The notes: a model not told the origin generated them from the letters alone. DNA of 64,000 nt from a virus (IMGVR_UViG_3300012344_000020:1-64000), one strand, 5' to 3'; counted from the stretch's first letter, positions 19,091-34,906 are shown. Translations and numbers: made by a program.

Positions 19091-19947
19091 ATGATTGAAA
19101 TGAACAACGAGGCTGAGATTATCAAGGGAAGATGTCGCTTCATCAACGACCACTTTCAGAATTTCAAGACCTACGGCATACCCCATGCCCAACTGATTAT
19201 TGCCGACCCACCCTATAATTTGGGCAAGAACGCATACGCCAGCAACCCGGCATGGTACAACGATGGCGACAACAAGAACGGTGAGAGCGAACTGGCAGGT
19301 AAGGAGTTCTTCGACACCGACAAGGATTTCCGCCCGGCTGAATTTATGCACTTTTGCTCACAGATGCTCGTCAAGGAGCCGAAGCAAGGCGTTACCGACG
19401 AGGATATAGAAAACCCATCGGGGGGGCAGAGAACAACGGCAAGGCTGGCTCACGCAAGAAGAGCAAGGCTCCGTGCATGATACTATTCTGCGCTTTCGAG
19501 CAGTTGCAGTATTACATCGACCTTGGCAAGCGTTACGGCTTCATGCACTATATCCCGTTAGTGTTCCGCAAGAACTTCTCGGCTCAGGTACTGAAGGCTA
19601 ACATGAAGGTGGTGGGTAATTGCGAGTACGGTTTGATGCTGTACAAAGATAAACTGCCGAAGTTCAACAACGACGGGCAGATGATATTCAACTGCTTTGA
19701 CTGGCCTCGCGACAGCACTACGCCCAAGGTTCATCCTACGCAGAAGCCAGTGCAGTTGCTTGAACGATTGATAGAGATATTCTCCGACCCCGATGATGTG
19801 GTGATAGACCCTTGCGCAGGAAGTGGCACGACGCTTCGCGCAGCCATTCAGAAAGGCCGTAAGGCGTATGGGTTTGAGATAAAGAAAAACTTTTTTAATG
19901 ATGCACGCGACAAAGTTCTGAAGAGTTTTCAGATGTCGCTGTTCTAA
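19091..19947 (+). pseudogene. N4/N6 DNA methyltransferase (beta class) split by a frameshift in a G7 tract at 19420-19426; G8 restores a single ORF
   Basis: ADPPY in the 5' half; HPTQKP and DPCAGSGTT in the 3' half. Confidence 0.85.
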
Positions 19948-28569: not shown

Positions 28570-29175
28570 ATGATTATGCAGAAAGAAAAGAAAACAACTC
28601 CTCAGATGGCTATTGCAGCTTTCGAGCAGTCCTGCAATGAACTTGCCCGTCAGGTGAACCACCGCTTGTTTGACGACACGCGCTCATGGTACTGGATAGG
28701 CAACGAGATAGGCGGCTCCTGCGACTTTGATGATGCCGACATCCTCACACCCGAGGAAATGGTCATCATCCTCCAGACGCCCCACTTCACCTACAACGAT
28801 TATGCCGAGTGGCGCGATGCCAACATCGAGTATGGCGACACCAAAGGCTACATCAACCTGCGGTCGTGGATCATAGGTTGCCGACACTTTATGCTGGCGG
28901 ACAAAGCGAAGAAAGAAACTATGATAGAGCCGTCAGAACTACGAAAAAAGAGCATGGAAGCCTTCGATAATAAATGTCGTGCTTCACTTGAGAAGATACA
29001 GCCCGCGCTGCAAAAGACTGCTGAAAGCGGAAAAACGGAGCTCACTATTTCCGATGTGAAAAAGCATTATCCTGATGTGGAAGATTTGTGTGTAGCATTA
29101 CAGATGCACGGTTTCAGAACATTCTATTCAGAGTTTTTCGATAGTTTGACCGTTTATTGGTGTTTTCGCAAATGA
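28570..29175 (+). CDS. Hypothetical protein
   Basis: 201 aa ORF. Confidence 0.75.
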   Translation: MIMQKEKKTTPQMAIAAFEQSCNELARQVNHRLFDDTRSWYWIGNEIGGSCDFDDADILTPEEMVIILQTPHFTYNDYAEWRDANIEYGDTKGYINLRSWIIGCRHFMLADKAKKETMIEPSELRKKSMEAFDNKCRASLEKIQPALQKTAESGKTELTISDVKKHYPDVEDLCVALQMHGFRTFYSEFFDSLTVYWCFRK

Positions 29176-29303
29176 CCACTTACCAACTCTCCGTGCATCC
29201 CTTGAGCCATAAGGTAGAGTGGGGAGGGTGGAAGCCTGTCGCTCCTGCCCTCCGTGCCACCGACTACAAGCGTCCGCACTGTGTCCTTATAACGTATGAT
29301 TAA
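29172..29303 (+). CDS. TRD-like mini-protein 1 (43 aa, ...PALRATDYKRPHCVLITYD)
   Basis: ATGA overlap with the upstream gene; TL-type motif; YD C-terminus. Confidence 0.7.
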   Translation: MTTYQLSVHPLSHKVEWGGWKPVAPALRATDYKRPHCVLITYD

Positions 29304-29442
29304 ACTCTTACCTTTGAACGTGGATAAAGACCACACCGCCCCGACGGTGCTTGCCGGATATTTCAAGTTCGGCTCGCGCACTTTGTTGCTCGGCAACTAC
29401 GGCACTACTGGGGGGGGGGGAATCTGTATTGAATATGATTAA
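29296..29442 (+). CDS. TRD-like mini-protein 2 (48 aa, APTVLAGYFKFG...GGGGICIEYD); G11 tract in frame
   Basis: ATGATTAA coupling. Confidence 0.7.
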   Translation: MIKLLPLNVDKDHTAPTVLAGYFKFGSRTLLLGNYGTTGGGGICIEYD

Positions 29443-29582
29443 GATAAACTACCACATTCCTCTCGTAGGGGGGGGTACTATCGCAAGTGACCGATGCCTT
29501 CAACCGAGGGCCGCTTTGGCACGTTAGCCGATGTGTGAGGAGCAACGTGCATGATGCAGGAGCGCTCATCTGTTACGAATAA
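29435..29582 (+). pseudogene. TRD-like mini-protein 3; G8 tract (29468-29475) out of frame, G7 gives ...SRCVRSNVHDAGALICYE
   Basis: Frame analysis. Confidence 0.65.
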
Positions 29583-29597
29583 CAAAAAAGACAAACA

Positions 29598-30973
29598 ATG
29601 ATAACAAAATTCAACTTCAACGACCGCACCATCAAGAGCTATGCCATACGCAAGCTCACGCCAAAGGAGTGTTTCCGGCTGATGGGTGTGCGCGACGATA
29701 CCATCCGCACGATGCAGACCACCGTGGCGGAAATGAAAGAGCGCCGTGGGCAAGCCGACAATGGCGGCAAGCAAAAAGATGCCGACATGGTAATCTCAGC
29801 CAGTCAGCAGTACAAGCAGGCGGGCAACTCTATTGTGGTGGATGTACTCAAGGCCATCTATGCACAGTTGTGGTACCCCAAGGAGCCGAAGCCGAAGGCG
29901 CAGCTCTCCATGTTTGACGATTTCTTTCCCGAGGATGCGCTGCCGCAGATGCCGGTGGATGCTAACCATGGCGAGAAGGTCATCATCACCACTTTCAGCG
30001 GCTACGACTCGCAGCTCATGGCTGCCGACGCCTTAAAGGAGGAACATCCCGATTTCCGCTGGACGTGTATAGGGCGGAGCGACATCGACAAGTATGCCTG
30101 CCAGATGCACGACCTCGTGTTTCCGCAATATGCCGACCGCGCCCTTGGCGACATCACCAAGATAGACTGGCACAGCGTGAAGCAGTCGCTCGAAGGTCGC
30201 GAGGTAGACCTCTTCACCTATTCCTCGCCCTGTCAGGACATCAGTCAGGCGGGCAAGCAGATGGGACTGAAGGAAGGCTCCGACACCCGAAGCGCATTGC
30301 TCTTCGGCGTGTGGCGGATGCCATTGATGTATTGCGACCCAAGTATCTGTTGCAGGAGAATGTGGCGGCACTGGTGAGCGAGAAGTTTATGCCCGACTTT
30401 CAGAAGTGGCTCGCCAAACTCGAAAGTCTGGGATATGTGAACCGCTGGGCACGGCTCAATGCCAAGGACTACGGTGTGCCGCAAAACCGCGACCGCGTGT
30501 TCTGCCTCTCCATGCGCCGTGATGTGGCTTTCGACTATCAGTTTCCCGAAGGCTTCCCTTTGCAGACCAGGTTGGAGGATGTGCTTGAAGAGGAAGTGAC
30601 AGAAAGGTTTTTCCTCAAAGACAATGCCGTGGAGAAATTCCTTAAAGCCAACGACACCGACAAGGCTCTCTTCATGCAGTTCGACCTTCCGCCTACACAC
30701 GATGCGGCAATGTTCCTCAAGACGTGGCTCCAGATGTGGATGCGTGGTGATTATGGCTTTGATGATTCTTGTTATGAAGAAGAATGGTTTGAAGAAAACG
30801 GATATACGTATTGGGATTTAACGCCATCGGAACTTCAAGAAACATTAGAAAATATCAAGGAAGATTTGTGCCAAGCGCATTTGGCGTTTAGCAATAAAGA
30901 ACTGATGGATGAAGAGTTTTCCTTGTTGTTCCAAGAAAACATGAAACGCCGTCCGAAAGATGAAAACCGATAA
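29598..30973 (+). pseudogene. dcm: Circularly permuted C5-cytosine DNA methyltransferase (IX-X-I...VIII), frameshifted near 30301
   Basis: N-terminal IRKLTPKECFRLMG and YKQAGNSIVV; then TFSGYDS, SPCQD, QENV, QNRDRVF; deleting 2 nt at ctct[tc]gg gives LLWRVADAI. Confidence 0.88.
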
Positions 30974-31129
30974 TCCGCCAGAAAGGGTAATCCGCCCCAT
31001 CGTTCTCGGCCAATACTCGCCCTCGCAGAACGGCATCATCGTGTCGCCGCACGGCATAGCCCTCTGCATAAGTGGGGGGGTAGAGGACACGATGTGGATA
31101 AACCAAAGATATTGATTGAGTATGACTAA
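30960..31129 (+). pseudogene. TRD-like mini-protein 4; G7 (31074-31080) out of frame, G8 gives ...SPHGIALCISGGGRGHDVDKPKILIEYD
   Basis: Frame analysis. Confidence 0.7.
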
Positions 31130-31439
31130 AACGCCCACCTATAAGCGCGGCACGTTCACCAGAAACGGAAAGACCTACGGCATATATCCCGATGGTTCTA
31201 CCTACAGGATATATGCCGATAACAACATCCCTTTCCTTCAGATAGTGGATGTCGGAGGCAGCACGTTCCTCCGTGTGCGCCAGGCTACGGAGCAAGGCTA
31301 TGCCGACTGTCCCGTCTTCGGTGTGTGCGACATCAGCTATCCCTCGTCAGCCTTGCGCAGGGCGAGAACGGTAGATGGTGGCCGGCTGGCCAACGCCCTG
31401 ACGTGCGGGCAGCAGTTGGCGGTGTTTGTAGAATTATAA
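31122..31439 (+). CDS. TRD-like protein 5 (105 aa; VRQATEQGY..DISYPSSALRRAR..ANALT)
   Basis: Motif typical of phage Dcm variable regions. Confidence 0.75.
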   Translation: MTKTPTYKRGTFTRNGKTYGIYPDGSTYRIYADNNIPFLQIVDVGGSTFLRVRQATEQGYADCPVFGVCDISYPSSALRRARTVDGGRLANALTCGQQLAVFVEL

Positions 31440-31445
31440 AGAATT

Positions 31446-31576
31446 ATGACGAAATATCTGTTTTACCAATGTCCAAGAGGTGAAAATCGGGGGGTATTCT
31501 CTCGCAGAGCATCTGTCCTACCATCACCATTTGCAGTTGGGCGTGTAATTGTTTTTTGATAAAAGAGTATGACTAA
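31446..31576 (+). pseudogene. TRD-like mini-protein 6; G6 (31489-31494) out of frame, G7 gives ...ICPTITICSWACNCFLIKEYD
   Basis: Frame analysis. Confidence 0.65.
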
Positions 31577-31721
31577 ACAAATTCCATTCGTGCAACGCTC
31601 GGCATGTCTGAGTATTCGGGGGGGGTACTCCACGGCAATCTCCTCTCGCTACGACGGTTGGGCAGGCTTGTTTGGCAAGAACCACGGGCAGCACACTATG
31701 GTGCTGGTGGCGTATGAGTAG
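31569..31721 (+). CDS. TRD-like mini-protein 7 (50 aa, ends MVLVAYE); G8 in frame
   Basis: Coupled start; conserved C-terminus. Confidence 0.7.
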   Translation: MTKQIPFVQRSACLSIRGGYSTAISSRYDGWAGLFGKNHGQHTMVLVAYE

Positions 31722-31899
31722 GCACAGAGCGGTGCTTGTGCATTACCGCACGGAGGAAGCGAAAGCCTACCGCCGCGAGCATGGCGACCGTGGCGGATGC
31801 CGGTATCAAGACAAGCTGCACCGTATGAACCCGCAGCCGTGGAGCAACACAGTGAGTACAGTAACGAAAGACAACCTGTTATGCGAAGAATATACATAG
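31714..31899 (+). CDS. TRD-like mini-protein 8 (61 aa; SNTVSTVTKDNLL)
   Basis: SNT(L/V)xTVxKDN motif. Confidence 0.7.
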   Translation: MSRHRAVLVHYRTEEAKAYRREHGDRGGCRYQDKLHRMNPQPWSNTVSTVTKDNLLCEEYT

Positions 31900-32052
31900 C
31901 CGCTTCTCGCGGTCGCGACCCGCTGAATCCTACCGACCGCAAACACTCGGTGAAAGGACGCAGTGAGCAGCGGTTTTAGATTAATGGGGGGTACGAGCAA
32001 CGCCCTTACCTCTGTCGGCAAAGACAACTTAGTACTGATGGCGTATGATTAA
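31881..32052 (+). pseudogene. TRD-like mini-protein 9; in-frame TAG (31977) and G6 (31986-31991) out of frame; restored end SNALTSVGKDNLVLMAYD
   Basis: Frame analysis. Confidence 0.65.
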
Positions 32053-32224
32053 GCGATATTACATCGGTTGGGTGCGCAGCGGAAAGGACGGCCACGGACT
32101 CGTCAAGAGCCGACCGCGCAAGCATATTGCTAATGCCGTAACCGCCTCGCCACCCGGCGGCTTTGCCGACCCTCGCGACGGACTGGGCAACACTACTCCG
32201 CATGTGGTGATGGTGTTTGAGTGA
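32045..32224 (+). CDS. TRD-like mini-protein 10 (59 aa; IANAVTA..GNTTPHVVMVFE)
   Basis: ATGATTAA coupling. Confidence 0.7.
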   Translation: MIKRYYIGWVRSGKDGHGLVKSRPRKHIANAVTASPPGGFADPRDGLGNTTPHVVMVFE

Positions 32225-32265
32225 AGAACAACAACAGTAAAGAAACAACTAAAATTTATAGAGCA

Positions 32266-32766
32266 ATGAGTATTTACACGCAATATGAAAAGATTAAGTC
32301 GTTATGGCATCCCATAACTGACGAGGACTTCAATATTGATTTCAGTATTCCCTTTGTCCTGTTTTCTGATGAAGGCAGTATTCTGTACTTTAATCCGAAG
32401 CGTGATAAGTTGGATGACATTTGGGATGACATGGTTCTTTTCGAGGAAGACGGAAAGACGATGACCGAAGAATTTAAAGATCACATGCGCAGCTTTGAAT
32501 TCGGTTATATGTATCTCGATGATGAGTTTTATCGTGCGATAGACAATTTCCGACACAAACATCTGGAAGACGTAAAGGCGAAGAACGAGAGAGCCAATGT
32601 TTTCGTTCAATATGCGAACAATGATTTCCGTGTTCTTGATGTTTTTGACTTTCGGCAGGATGGCAGTCCGTACCGGGATTGGAACACATCGGATGTGGCA
32701 TATTTCGTAAACCTGGATAGTGTGCCTGCCACAAGTTTGAATGGCCTTTTTCTGCAAATGGATTAA
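32266..32766 (+). CDS. Hypothetical acidic protein
   Basis: TTTATAGAGCAATG leader. Confidence 0.7.
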   Translation: MSIYTQYEKIKSLWHPITDEDFNIDFSIPFVLFSDEGSILYFNPKRDKLDDIWDDMVLFEEDGKTMTEEFKDHMRSFEFGYMYLDDEFYRAIDNFRHKHLEDVKAKNERANVFVQYANNDFRVLDVFDFRQDGSPYRDWNTSDVAYFVNLDSVPATSLNGLFLQMD

Positions 32767-32792
32767 GAACAACTTAAATTTATAGAGCAATT

Positions 32793-33269
32793 ATGAAAGA
32801 AAACAAAGGACTATACAATGCGCTCATCCGCAGACTGGGCGAGATGGTGAAAGAGAATGTGGAACTGGAGCAGCGTGTGCATCAGCTCACGGGTGAGTAC
32901 AACCGTGTGGTGAAGCAGGCGAATGAGAAGTCTGTGGATTCTCTGATGAGCGAAAACGAAAGTTTGAAAAAGCTAAGCAATCAACTTCAGATAGAGCGCA
33001 ACGAGGCGCGTACCAGTGTGGCCGAATACAAACACCACGAAGCGGAACTACTCAATGCAATTAACCGACATTGCGAATCCGACATCATGAAGTGTGGTGA
33101 AACCTGTCCGAACAAACCAGGATGTGATGTAGGCTCAAAAGATTGCTGTGCTTGTAAGCATGAATTAGGACAAAAGAAATATCTTAGCGTTTACTTTATT
33201 TTTTGCGCCTACCGCTACGACAAGCAGCAGGAGGAAGAAGCAAAGGAAAGAAATAATGAAGATGAATAG
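32793..33269 (+). CDS. Coiled-coil protein with a Cys-rich C-terminus
   Basis: 158 aa. Confidence 0.7.
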   Translation: MKENKGLYNALIRRLGEMVKENVELEQRVHQLTGEYNRVVKQANEKSVDSLMSENESLKKLSNQLQIERNEARTSVAEYKHHEAELLNAINRHCESDIMKCGETCPNKPGCDVGSKDCCACKHELGQKKYLSVYFIFCAYRYDKQQEEEAKERNNEDE

Positions 33270-33426
33270 CCACCTCCATACACATTGCCTCGGCATGCTC
33301 ACCGTGCCGCCCTACGACCGCAAGTTTGAGCAGTCGCGCAGAGTGTTCTCCCCGAAGGGCGTTGCGCCTACGGTGTATACCTTCGGGGGGGGCAACCTTG
33401 AGATAAAGATATTATTGGAATTGTAA
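33256..33426 (+). CDS. TRD-like mini-protein 11 (56 aa; RVFSPKGVAPTVYTFGGGNLEIKI); G8 in frame
   Basis: Canonical RVxSPxGxAPT..GGG..KI unit. Confidence 0.75.
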   Translation: MKMNSHLHTHCLGMLTVPPYDRKFEQSRRVFSPKGVAPTVYTFGGGNLEIKILLEL

Positions 33427-33455
33427 AACGAACATATAAACATTTATAGAGCAAT

Positions 33456-34732: not shown

Positions 34733-34906
34733 TCCGTAAGGCCGCAGAACGGAATTGTCCCGAAGGCCAAGGGAACGTAGTCCGGCTCACATGATGCAGT
34801 CGCCGTACAACGTAAGCAACGGGTGCTGGTGCAGACGCATGACACAGAAGGAAAACTTATACCACTGCACAACTTTTTTGGAAACGAAAATTTATAGAGC
34901 AAAACA

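Follow-up and report, generated by a model that had tools for sequence, protein, structure and literature searches.

The closest functional analogues of the locus considered here are the multispecific C5-cytosine methyltransferases of the Bacillus phages SPR, phi3T, rho11s, and H2, known from the work of the Trautner laboratory. These enzymes carry several target recognition domains (TRDs), each with its own target, on one catalytic frame, and protect the phage from host restriction; the TRDs follow one another in a single polypeptide, in the interval from motif VIII to motif IX, and are always expressed. The locus in question occupies 29.1-33.5 kb of the viral sequence IMGVR_UViG_3300012344_000020:1-64000 (hereafter the window, a stretch of 64,000 nucleotides that makes up the first 64 kb of an 89,413-bp IMG/VR virus record), where eleven short open reading frames (ORFs), M0-M10, flank a C5 cytosine methyltransferase core (PF00145). 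In contrast to the Bacillus phage enzymes, this core is circularly permuted, and the putative TRD halves, rather than being joined in tandem in one polypeptide as in SPR and phi3T, are separate mini-genes of 43-105 amino acids with their own ATG and stop codons, many of which carry a candidate slippage switch in the form of a G homopolymer. These tracts gain or lose 1-2 G far faster than their flanks acquire substitutions, and each such change in length shifts one mini-gene between a full-length (ON) and a truncated (OFF) frame.

Phase-variable methyltransferases are textbook material for bacterial pathogens, and the polyG tracts of phages have hitherto been tied mainly to receptor-binding genes. 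Bacterial phasevarions, which are governed by phase-variable Type III mod, Type I hsdS/hsdM, and Type IIG genes, are known from Haemophilus, Neisseria, Helicobacter, and Campylobacter (PMC11868660; PMC7383803). Like them, the present locus has homopolymers or short repeats inside coding sequence, changes that are not multiples of three and that toggle methyltransferase function, and polymorphism among close relatives. Unlike them, it is carried by a phage, concerns a C5-methyltransferase, would switch not just the enzyme but each of up to about 11 separate specificity mini-genes, and presumably serves anti-restriction rather than gene regulation. Among phages, contingency loci have been described in T2/T4 (bioRxiv 10.1101/2025.10.21.683753) and hypermutable polyG tracts in the Campylobacter Fletchervirus group (Sorensen et al. 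2021, Cell Rep 35:109214, as cited in PMC12823448 and bioRxiv 10.1101/2025.10.21.683753). As far as these citing accounts go, the Fletchervirus tracts are likewise phage-encoded runs of G7-G11 that give frameshift variants within a population and are interpreted as bet-hedging, but they lie in receptor-binding or other genes, whereas those of the window lie in DNA-modification genes and form a multi-switch array around one enzyme. Bordetella phage BPP-1 is also reported to have a polyG tract in a methylase gene (Liu et al. 2004, as cited in bioRxiv 10.1101/2025.10.21.683753), and according to that preprint it has received no further study; as described there it is a single tract in one conventional gene, whereas the window locus has many tracts, one per specificity module, and some clades have core tracts in addition. 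Finally, the naturally split C5-methyltransferases M.AquI and M.EcoHK31I, together with fragment complementation of M.SssI (PMC3404938), offer a precedent for C5-methyltransferase activity assembled from separate polypeptides, as is predicted here, although M.AquI and M.EcoHK31I consist of two fixed subunits and have neither an interchangeable recognition library nor repeat tracts.

No paper describing a permuted core with recognition mini-genes and slippage switches was found in the literature searched, and no close relative was found at the DNA level in the GenBank phage collection, where all protein matches fell below 60% identity. The novelty lies in the combination of a permuted, TRD-less core with a set of separately encoded recognition mini-genes and a slippage switch for each specificity; the mechanism itself is classical phase variation by simple sequence repeats (SSRs). 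The core family is very common in public metagenome assemblies, with at least 7976 core homologues. Should the modules function in the way proposed below, DNA-recognition specificity would be encoded as detachable parts, and a virus would randomise its own epigenetic coat motif by motif. This would be relevant to phage host range in the microbiome, to the annotation of apparent frameshifts in metagenomic phage genes, and to the engineering of programmable C5-methyltransferases.

Architecture of the locus and its G tracts

Each module begins with its own ATG, which usually overlaps the preceding stop codon, and encodes a TL-like motif (of the 'aPTlxA' kind); most also encode GG or GGG ahead of a hydrophobic strand finishing in EYD, EYE, or EL. 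With ratios of nonsynonymous to synonymous substitution rates (dN/dS) of 0.11-0.32 in ten module families, these mini-ORFs are genes under purifying selection. The features of the locus, all on the + strand, are given below with the tract length that keeps each switched module ON.

29172-29303, +, M0: TRD-like mini-gene of 43 amino acids; the long tract is absent here, the site being interrupted (GTGGGGAGGGTGG)
29296-29442, +, M1: 48 amino acids, ON; G11 at 29410-29420 encodes GGGG preceding the C-terminal ICIEYD
29435-29582, +, M2: OFF; G8 at 29468-29475 separates the N-part (in the frame of 29435) from the C-part ending in ICYE; ON at G7
29598-30973, +, core: C5-methyltransferase, circularly permuted with motif order IX-X-I-IV-VI-VIII, without Gly-rich recognition loops
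30960-31129, +, M3: OFF; G7 at 31074-31080; ON at G8 (ISGGG-RGHDVDKPKILIEYD)
31122-31439, +, M4: TRD-like gene of 105 amino acids, tract-free here
31446-31576, +, M5: OFF; G6 at 31489-31494; ON at G7
31569-31721, +, M6: 50 amino acids, ON; G8 at 31618-31625 (IRGGYSTA)
31714-31899, +, M7: 61 amino acids, no tract; C-terminal motif STVTKDNLL
31881-32052, +, M8: OFF and doubly damaged, by a TAG at 31977-31979 and G6 at 31986-31991 (ON at G5 or G8)
32045-32224, +, M9: 59 amino acids, no tract here
33256-33426, +, M10: 56 amino acids, ON; G8 at 33385-33392 encodes GGG aligned with G255-G257 of M.HhaI

Seven of the eight runs of six or more G (G6+) in the window lie within 29410-33392, in 7 of the 11 TRD-like mini-genes. 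An earlier reading of the window made from the sequence alone had placed G6-G11 tracts in 7 of 11 modules, and its coordinates and lengths for them prove exact. Comparison with orthologues also upholds its frame assignments, namely that M1 (G11), M6 (G8), and M10 (G8) are in frame, and that M2 (G8, needing G7), M3 (G7, needing G8), M5 (G6, needing G7), and M8 (G6, needing G5 or G8) are not. Its further remark that G6+ runs occur almost only in methylase genes stands for the window, where the sole such run elsewhere is a G7 at 19420 inside an N6_N4_Mtase gene (PF01555), which is also OFF; it fails genome-wide, because G9, G13, G18, and C9 tracts follow a PAPS_reduct domain outside the window. 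The sole run of six or more C in the window is a C9 at 55-63.

Chance is not the cause of this clustering. The 3983 bp of the locus hold seven G≥6 runs against 0.85 expected (Poisson P 3e-5) and four G≥8 runs against 0.056 expected (P 4e-7), and the window as a whole has 16 matches to GGGGGGG against 2.7 in dinucleotide shuffles, a number that none of 100 shuffles attains. The rest of the genome avoids G/C runs (two C≥6 runs against about 13 expected). Among Gly codons GGG is the least used (8.7%), and the spelling GGGGGG occurs at 0 of 83 Gly-Gly pairs in 51 long ORFs. As is characteristic of SSR contingency loci, the repeats of the window lie inside coding regions (G6-G11 in the seven mini-genes, G7 in the N4/N6 methyltransferase), repeat number is polymorphic among close relatives far above background, and changes in length switch the frame between ON and OFF; the evidence for the last two features comes from related loci and same-lineage assemblies.

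Tract length and reading frame among related loci

Relatives were found through the C-terminal half of the core, which matched more than 544 IMG/VR contigs; 80 loci, each with 5 kb of flank, were retained. The census of ON and OFF states covers 11 module families in 79 loci, with the N- and C-parts of each module aligned separately in all three frames; a homology-free procedure that took the longest spanning ORF was dropped as unreliable because adjacent modules overlap one another in different frames. Around the core, G6+ runs are frequent in most of the 80 loci, and the loci of the census carry between 0 and 5 long tracts each. Where the 30-nt flanks are conserved, tract length itself varies: one tract has G6 once, G7 seven times, G8 13 times, and G10 once; another has G6 three times, G7 four times, G8 eight times, G9 three times, and G11 once; and a further one has G6 once, G7 nine times, and G8 five times. 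Runs of G5 are essentially fixed across loci.

The consequence for the reading frame is pronounced. Junctions with at most five G are ON in 369 cases and OFF in 11, whereas those with six or more are ON in 45 and OFF in 84 (odds ratio 63, P 6e-50), and tract-free junctions are 97% intact. Furthermore, the ON lengths follow a period of three, so that M4 is ON at G5, G8, and G11 and OFF at G6, G7, and G9, and M3 is ON at G5 (43 cases) and G8 (4 cases) and OFF at G6, G7, and G10. M4, which has no tract in the window, carries G6-G11 in its orthologues at the RTVGGGK site, and M0 orthologues carry G6-G10, being ON at G7 or G10. In 80 of the 84 OFF alleles both halves remain open and of normal length, and a single slip would therefore restore the gene. 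M8 of the window differs in having its TAG two codons 5′ of the tract, where relatives have a sense codon, so that slippage alone would not restore it.

The rapidity of these changes is most evident among near-identical sequences. Two independently assembled pairs, each compared over 10.6 kb, show 0 substitutions; one (L017 and L019) differs by four insertions or deletions (indels), all in G/C tracts, and the other (L058 and L059) by two, both at G tracts. In pairs with no more than 2 mismatches per 200 nt of flank, tract length was unequal in 10 of 17 cases at G7, 15 of 23 at G8, and 16 of 17 at G9; under the same pair criterion, the control runs A7 and T7 were unequal in 0 of 21 and 0 of 7. 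One clade of 15 loci displays eight distinct ON/OFF patterns over five modules.

For the lineage of the window itself, pattern scans of viral and metagenome contigs and a scan with flank proteins found no near-identical DNA, and the tract states were therefore inferred from a protein collection, using proteins that match M1 exactly over their first 38-41 residues. The implied lengths at 29410 are G7 (P0149), G8 (P0141, in frame), G9 (P0142), and G10 (P0123, P0146, P0147, and P0148), beside the G11 of the window; those at 29468, taken from the G10 and G7 forms of M1 that read into M2's frame, are G6, G8, and G9. The sources of these proteins are ENA, Logan, and JGI assemblies, and several occur on two contigs each. 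By comparison, the tract-free neighbours are letter-identical on 25 contigs (M0), 30 contigs (M4), and 29 contigs (a 158-amino-acid ORF), and their clusters are uniform in length; all 11 members of the M9 cluster have 59 amino acids. A corresponding search with the M3 protein found no same-lineage variants. The slippage postulated by the sequence-only reading thus gains support, in that near-identical genomes and same-lineage assemblies differ by steps that are not multiples of three, in both directions. The check that it had proposed, tract-length heterogeneity across strains, has likewise been carried out, and the constancy of A7 and T7 runs and of tract-free neighbours favours real heterogeneity.

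Whether each tract toggles one mini-gene, as that reading also held, depends on the junctions between modules. The usual module start is ATGAYTRA, a start codon with stops in both other frames. Within -30 to +10 nt, 364 of 454 module starts have stops in both non-own frames, compared with 167 of 860 random ATGs; for stops in all three frames the figures are 313 of 454 and 61 of 860. Each gene having its own ATG, and most junctions having other-frame stops, the claim holds for most of the array. It does not hold where M1 at G10 or G7 enters M2's frame: the M1/M2 junction is exceptional, and other assemblies accordingly contain M1-M2 fusion ORFs of 63-76 amino acids. Two relatives of M6 (P0238 and P0241) are G7-type OFF forms fused into M7's frame.

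A chimeric mini-protein from a relative (P0130) joins an M1-type N-part at GGG to an M4-type C-part (…GDYGTTGGGKLVNALTAAS…). Its make-up suggests that the tracts may also be sites at which recombination reshuffles the halves of modules.

The methyltransferase core

The core retains C5-methyltransferase motifs I, IV (PCQ), VI (ENV), VIII (QxRxR), IX, and X, and in the window its gene is split between motifs IV/V and VI. The split is due to a +2 insertion within 30300-30307, where the window reads CTCTTCGG and relatives read CTTTGG or CTCTGG; the site is not a homopolymer. The N-fragment spans 29598-30377, and the C-part starts from 30311. Because the resulting 259-amino-acid N-fragment is letter-identical on 18 contigs from four sources (NCBI, JGI, Logan, and ENA), the insertion is fixed rather than an artefact of assembly. 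The same 90% cluster includes intact cores of 440-457 amino acids from relatives at 90% identity or more, and 64 of the 80 related loci have an intact core. A programmed frameshift at the +2 site was rejected upon inspection of the sequence, as the slippery heptamer is absent. The core of the window lineage is therefore probably either inactive or functional as a pair of fragments, and in that lineage the switches may be idle.

In other clades the core itself contains tracts. Runs of G6-G8 precede motif IV at about 4883 in loci L063-L081, where G7 is the ON length and is found in 9 of 15 loci; runs of C7-C9 lie in motif IX (RKLTPPEC) at about 4360 in five loci (L004, L042, L043, L048, and L080); and a C8 tract lies in the core linker at 4639 of L037. 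Tracts inside the core would act as master switches, and the presence of tracts in the cores and modules of different clades points to convergence. In one related locus (L002:3222-5600) the core is interrupted by an intein, comprising a Hint domain and a LAGLIDADG homing endonuclease, situated exactly in catalytic motif IV between SSPC and CQDIS.

Modules as candidate halves of target recognition domains

The relation between modules and core is visible in their collinearity. In the window, the C-part of M2 and the core share a frame and are separated by one TAA and five codons (29580-29600). A related locus (L078) has the same layout, with M4, a single TAA, and then the core; once its M4 is read through the TAA into the core, the match to PF00145 begins at profile position 234 rather than 269, and M4 fills the segment preceding motif IX. 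Natural fusions, sought among 1.84 billion representatives, point in the same direction. Residues 1-54 of one fusion protein (P0284) are homologous to the full length of a free mini-gene of locus L019 (expectation value E 5e-10) and lie 5′ of motif IX, and in another (P0267) the M7 motif (S)TVTKDNLL is fused directly upstream of motif IX. An AlphaFold2 model of P0284, with an overall predicted local distance difference test (pLDDT) score of 87, has the M.HhaI fold; a Foldseek search with it returned the C5-methyltransferase catalytic fold, matching M.HhaI, M.MpeI, and M.HaeIII.

Profile searches with the modules add a weaker signal. The M10 family profile matched 12 PDB entries, all of them C5-methyltransferases and M.MpeI among them, at E of about 0.8-1. 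Its alignment on M.HhaI, which is weak (E about 0.8-1), covers residues 239-257 (ERIYSTRGIAITLSAYGGG), of which 255-257 form the end of the second Gly-rich recognition loop. Single modules gave no Pfam match at E≤1, the M4 profile returned nothing meaningful from the PDB, and M4 had no usable match in the ESM Atlas. That the modules may be detached TRD halves serving a TRD-less core is reasonably supported in sequence terms by this combination of individually modest lines of evidence.

Proposed contingency switches and alternative explanations

At a probability of roughly 0.7, we favour the reading that the tracts are contingency-type hypermutable G homopolymers on the Gly-Gly(-Gly) codons of half-TRD mini-genes, and that the modules in the ON state diversify methylation repertoires. 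Under this proposal, each short gene, with its tract placed on Gly-Gly(-Gly) codons, would be the sequence-reading half of a C5-methyltransferase TRD, and slippage during phage DNA replication would alter the length of the tract. The stops at the junctions would let ribosomes terminate and restart from any frame, leaving the switches largely independent of one another. Each ON module would dock to the TRD-less permuted core and add one methylation specificity, and the phage population would thereby hold many methylation repertoires. A phage lineage would then probably carry a shifting set of methylation specificities, and it is plausible that these differing sets are a hedge against host restriction-modification. 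A more elaborate version is tentative, and we judge its chances to be somewhat below even. In that version the locus would be a combinatorial switchboard, in which a free library of half-TRDs serves the permuted, TRD-less core in trans, each specificity has its own poly-G switch insulated by three-frame stops, up to 2^n repertoires arise per burst, and the population hedges between Type I-III (methylation-sensitive) and Type IV (methylation-dependent) restriction.

Several observations weigh against the contingency reading, and a number of them speak for an alternative in which the tracts are hypermutable without adaptive purpose, that is, a mutational hot spot where Gly-Gly loop codons arose by chance, the frame drifts at random once G6 is reached, and the genes are dispensable. 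The ON fraction at G≥6 is 45/129 or 0.35, an ON:OFF ratio of 35:65 that is not distinct from the neutral expectation of 1/3 (P 0.71); ON frequency is independent of core integrity (33/102 vs 12/27, P 0.26); and no signal of selection on switch state was seen in the 129 G≥6 junctions. The window lineage keeps both its non-tract core frameshift, fixed on 18 contigs, and the nonsense codon in M8; the system may be defunct there, and methylation bet-hedging is probably moot in that lineage. Among relatives, 5 or 6 of the 16 broken cores owe their state to nonsense codons or other non-tract indels. The switches, moreover, are not fully independent, given the passage of M1 at G10 or G7 into M2's frame. 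The TRD role, for its part, is proposed from weak sequence similarity, collinearity, and natural fusions; the module part of the P0284 model has low confidence (pLDDT 41-65), and an AlphaFold2 model of the L078 M4-TAA-core read-through, built on a 60-row alignment, was discarded at a pLDDT of 52.8. A hot spot without purpose is nonetheless an unlikely account of the whole. It fits poorly with the purifying selection on the modules, with the intactness of 97% of tract-free junctions, and with the lack of secondary decay in 80 of 84 OFF alleles. Nor would it lead one to expect tracts built from the rarest Gly codon, in a spelling that is used at none of the 83 other Gly-Gly pairs, at sites that vary over all the module families and take in the core of two clades and the N4/N6 methyltransferase, or stable interrupted alleles (GGGGGTGG) alongside pure tracts.

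Two further explanations deny that the DNA switches exist or that they matter. All tract evidence comes from consensus assemblies of short-read metagenomes, in which homopolymers are error-prone, and the length differences might accordingly be sequencing or assembly errors at G homopolymers of genomes that are in truth uniform and in frame. Two M1 proteins do end in ...TTGG, as if the contig had broken inside the tract, and L058 and L059 differ at the tract by an odd GT indel. We regard this explanation as extremely improbable, however: about half of the members are off the modal length at G7 and G8, whereas in the same loci only 0-3% are at A7 and T7; OFF alleles are in the majority, an outcome that consensus errors would not yield; the same variant recurs on at least two contigs from different sources; and errors cannot account for tracts that exist only in DNA-modification genes. 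It is also very improbable that in a fraction of products the frame is recovered on the G run, through slipping of RNA polymerase or frameshifting by the ribosome, with all modules being expressed to some degree whatever the length of the DNA tract. Long homopolymers can cause transcriptional slippage, and most tract-bearing alleles of modules of the M2 type are OFF, with shifts in either direction; yet the OFF alleles need +1 or -1 depending on the case, so that no single programmed direction would serve, and the period of three in the ON lengths identifies the annotated frames as the coding ones. In addition, known efficient transcriptional slippage uses A/T runs of about nine, and G runs are not standard -1 slippery heptamers, which also counts against restoration at the level of RNA or the ribosome.

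Other probable hypermutable loci in this genome

The window contains one further gene that is interrupted at a G tract:

19091-19947, +, N4/N6 DNA methyltransferase (PF01555): OFF, split at the G7 of 19420-19426; a G8 would join ENPSGG to AENNGK

Its tract-free relatives are single proteins of 257-318 amino acids, and a protein from another assembly (P0203, ENA) has the same OFF tail as the window gene.

Beyond the window, at 68248-69700 of the genome (L086), lies a PAPS_reduct ORF (PF01507) with an SGGKDS PP-loop. Its G9, G13, G18, and C9 tracts are situated just 3′ of the domain, at 69.3-69.6 kb, in a Gly/Pro-rich stretch, and the likely C-terminal part of the protein carries on in other frames. 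The region appears to be a third hypermutable locus, within a gene that is probably one for DNA modification.

Additional sequence features

The first 140 nt of the window are of low complexity, with CACC repeats, the C9 run, (TA)7, and a short alternating CG run, and are possibly a genome terminus. Within and beyond the module array, the 14-mer ATTTATAGAGCAAT occurs at 32254-32267, 32778-32791, 33442-33455, and 34890-34903, four matches against 0.56 expected. The copies stand directly 5′ of the ATG of four non-module genes and interrupt the array between M9 and M10; the element is probably a phage promoter or leader.

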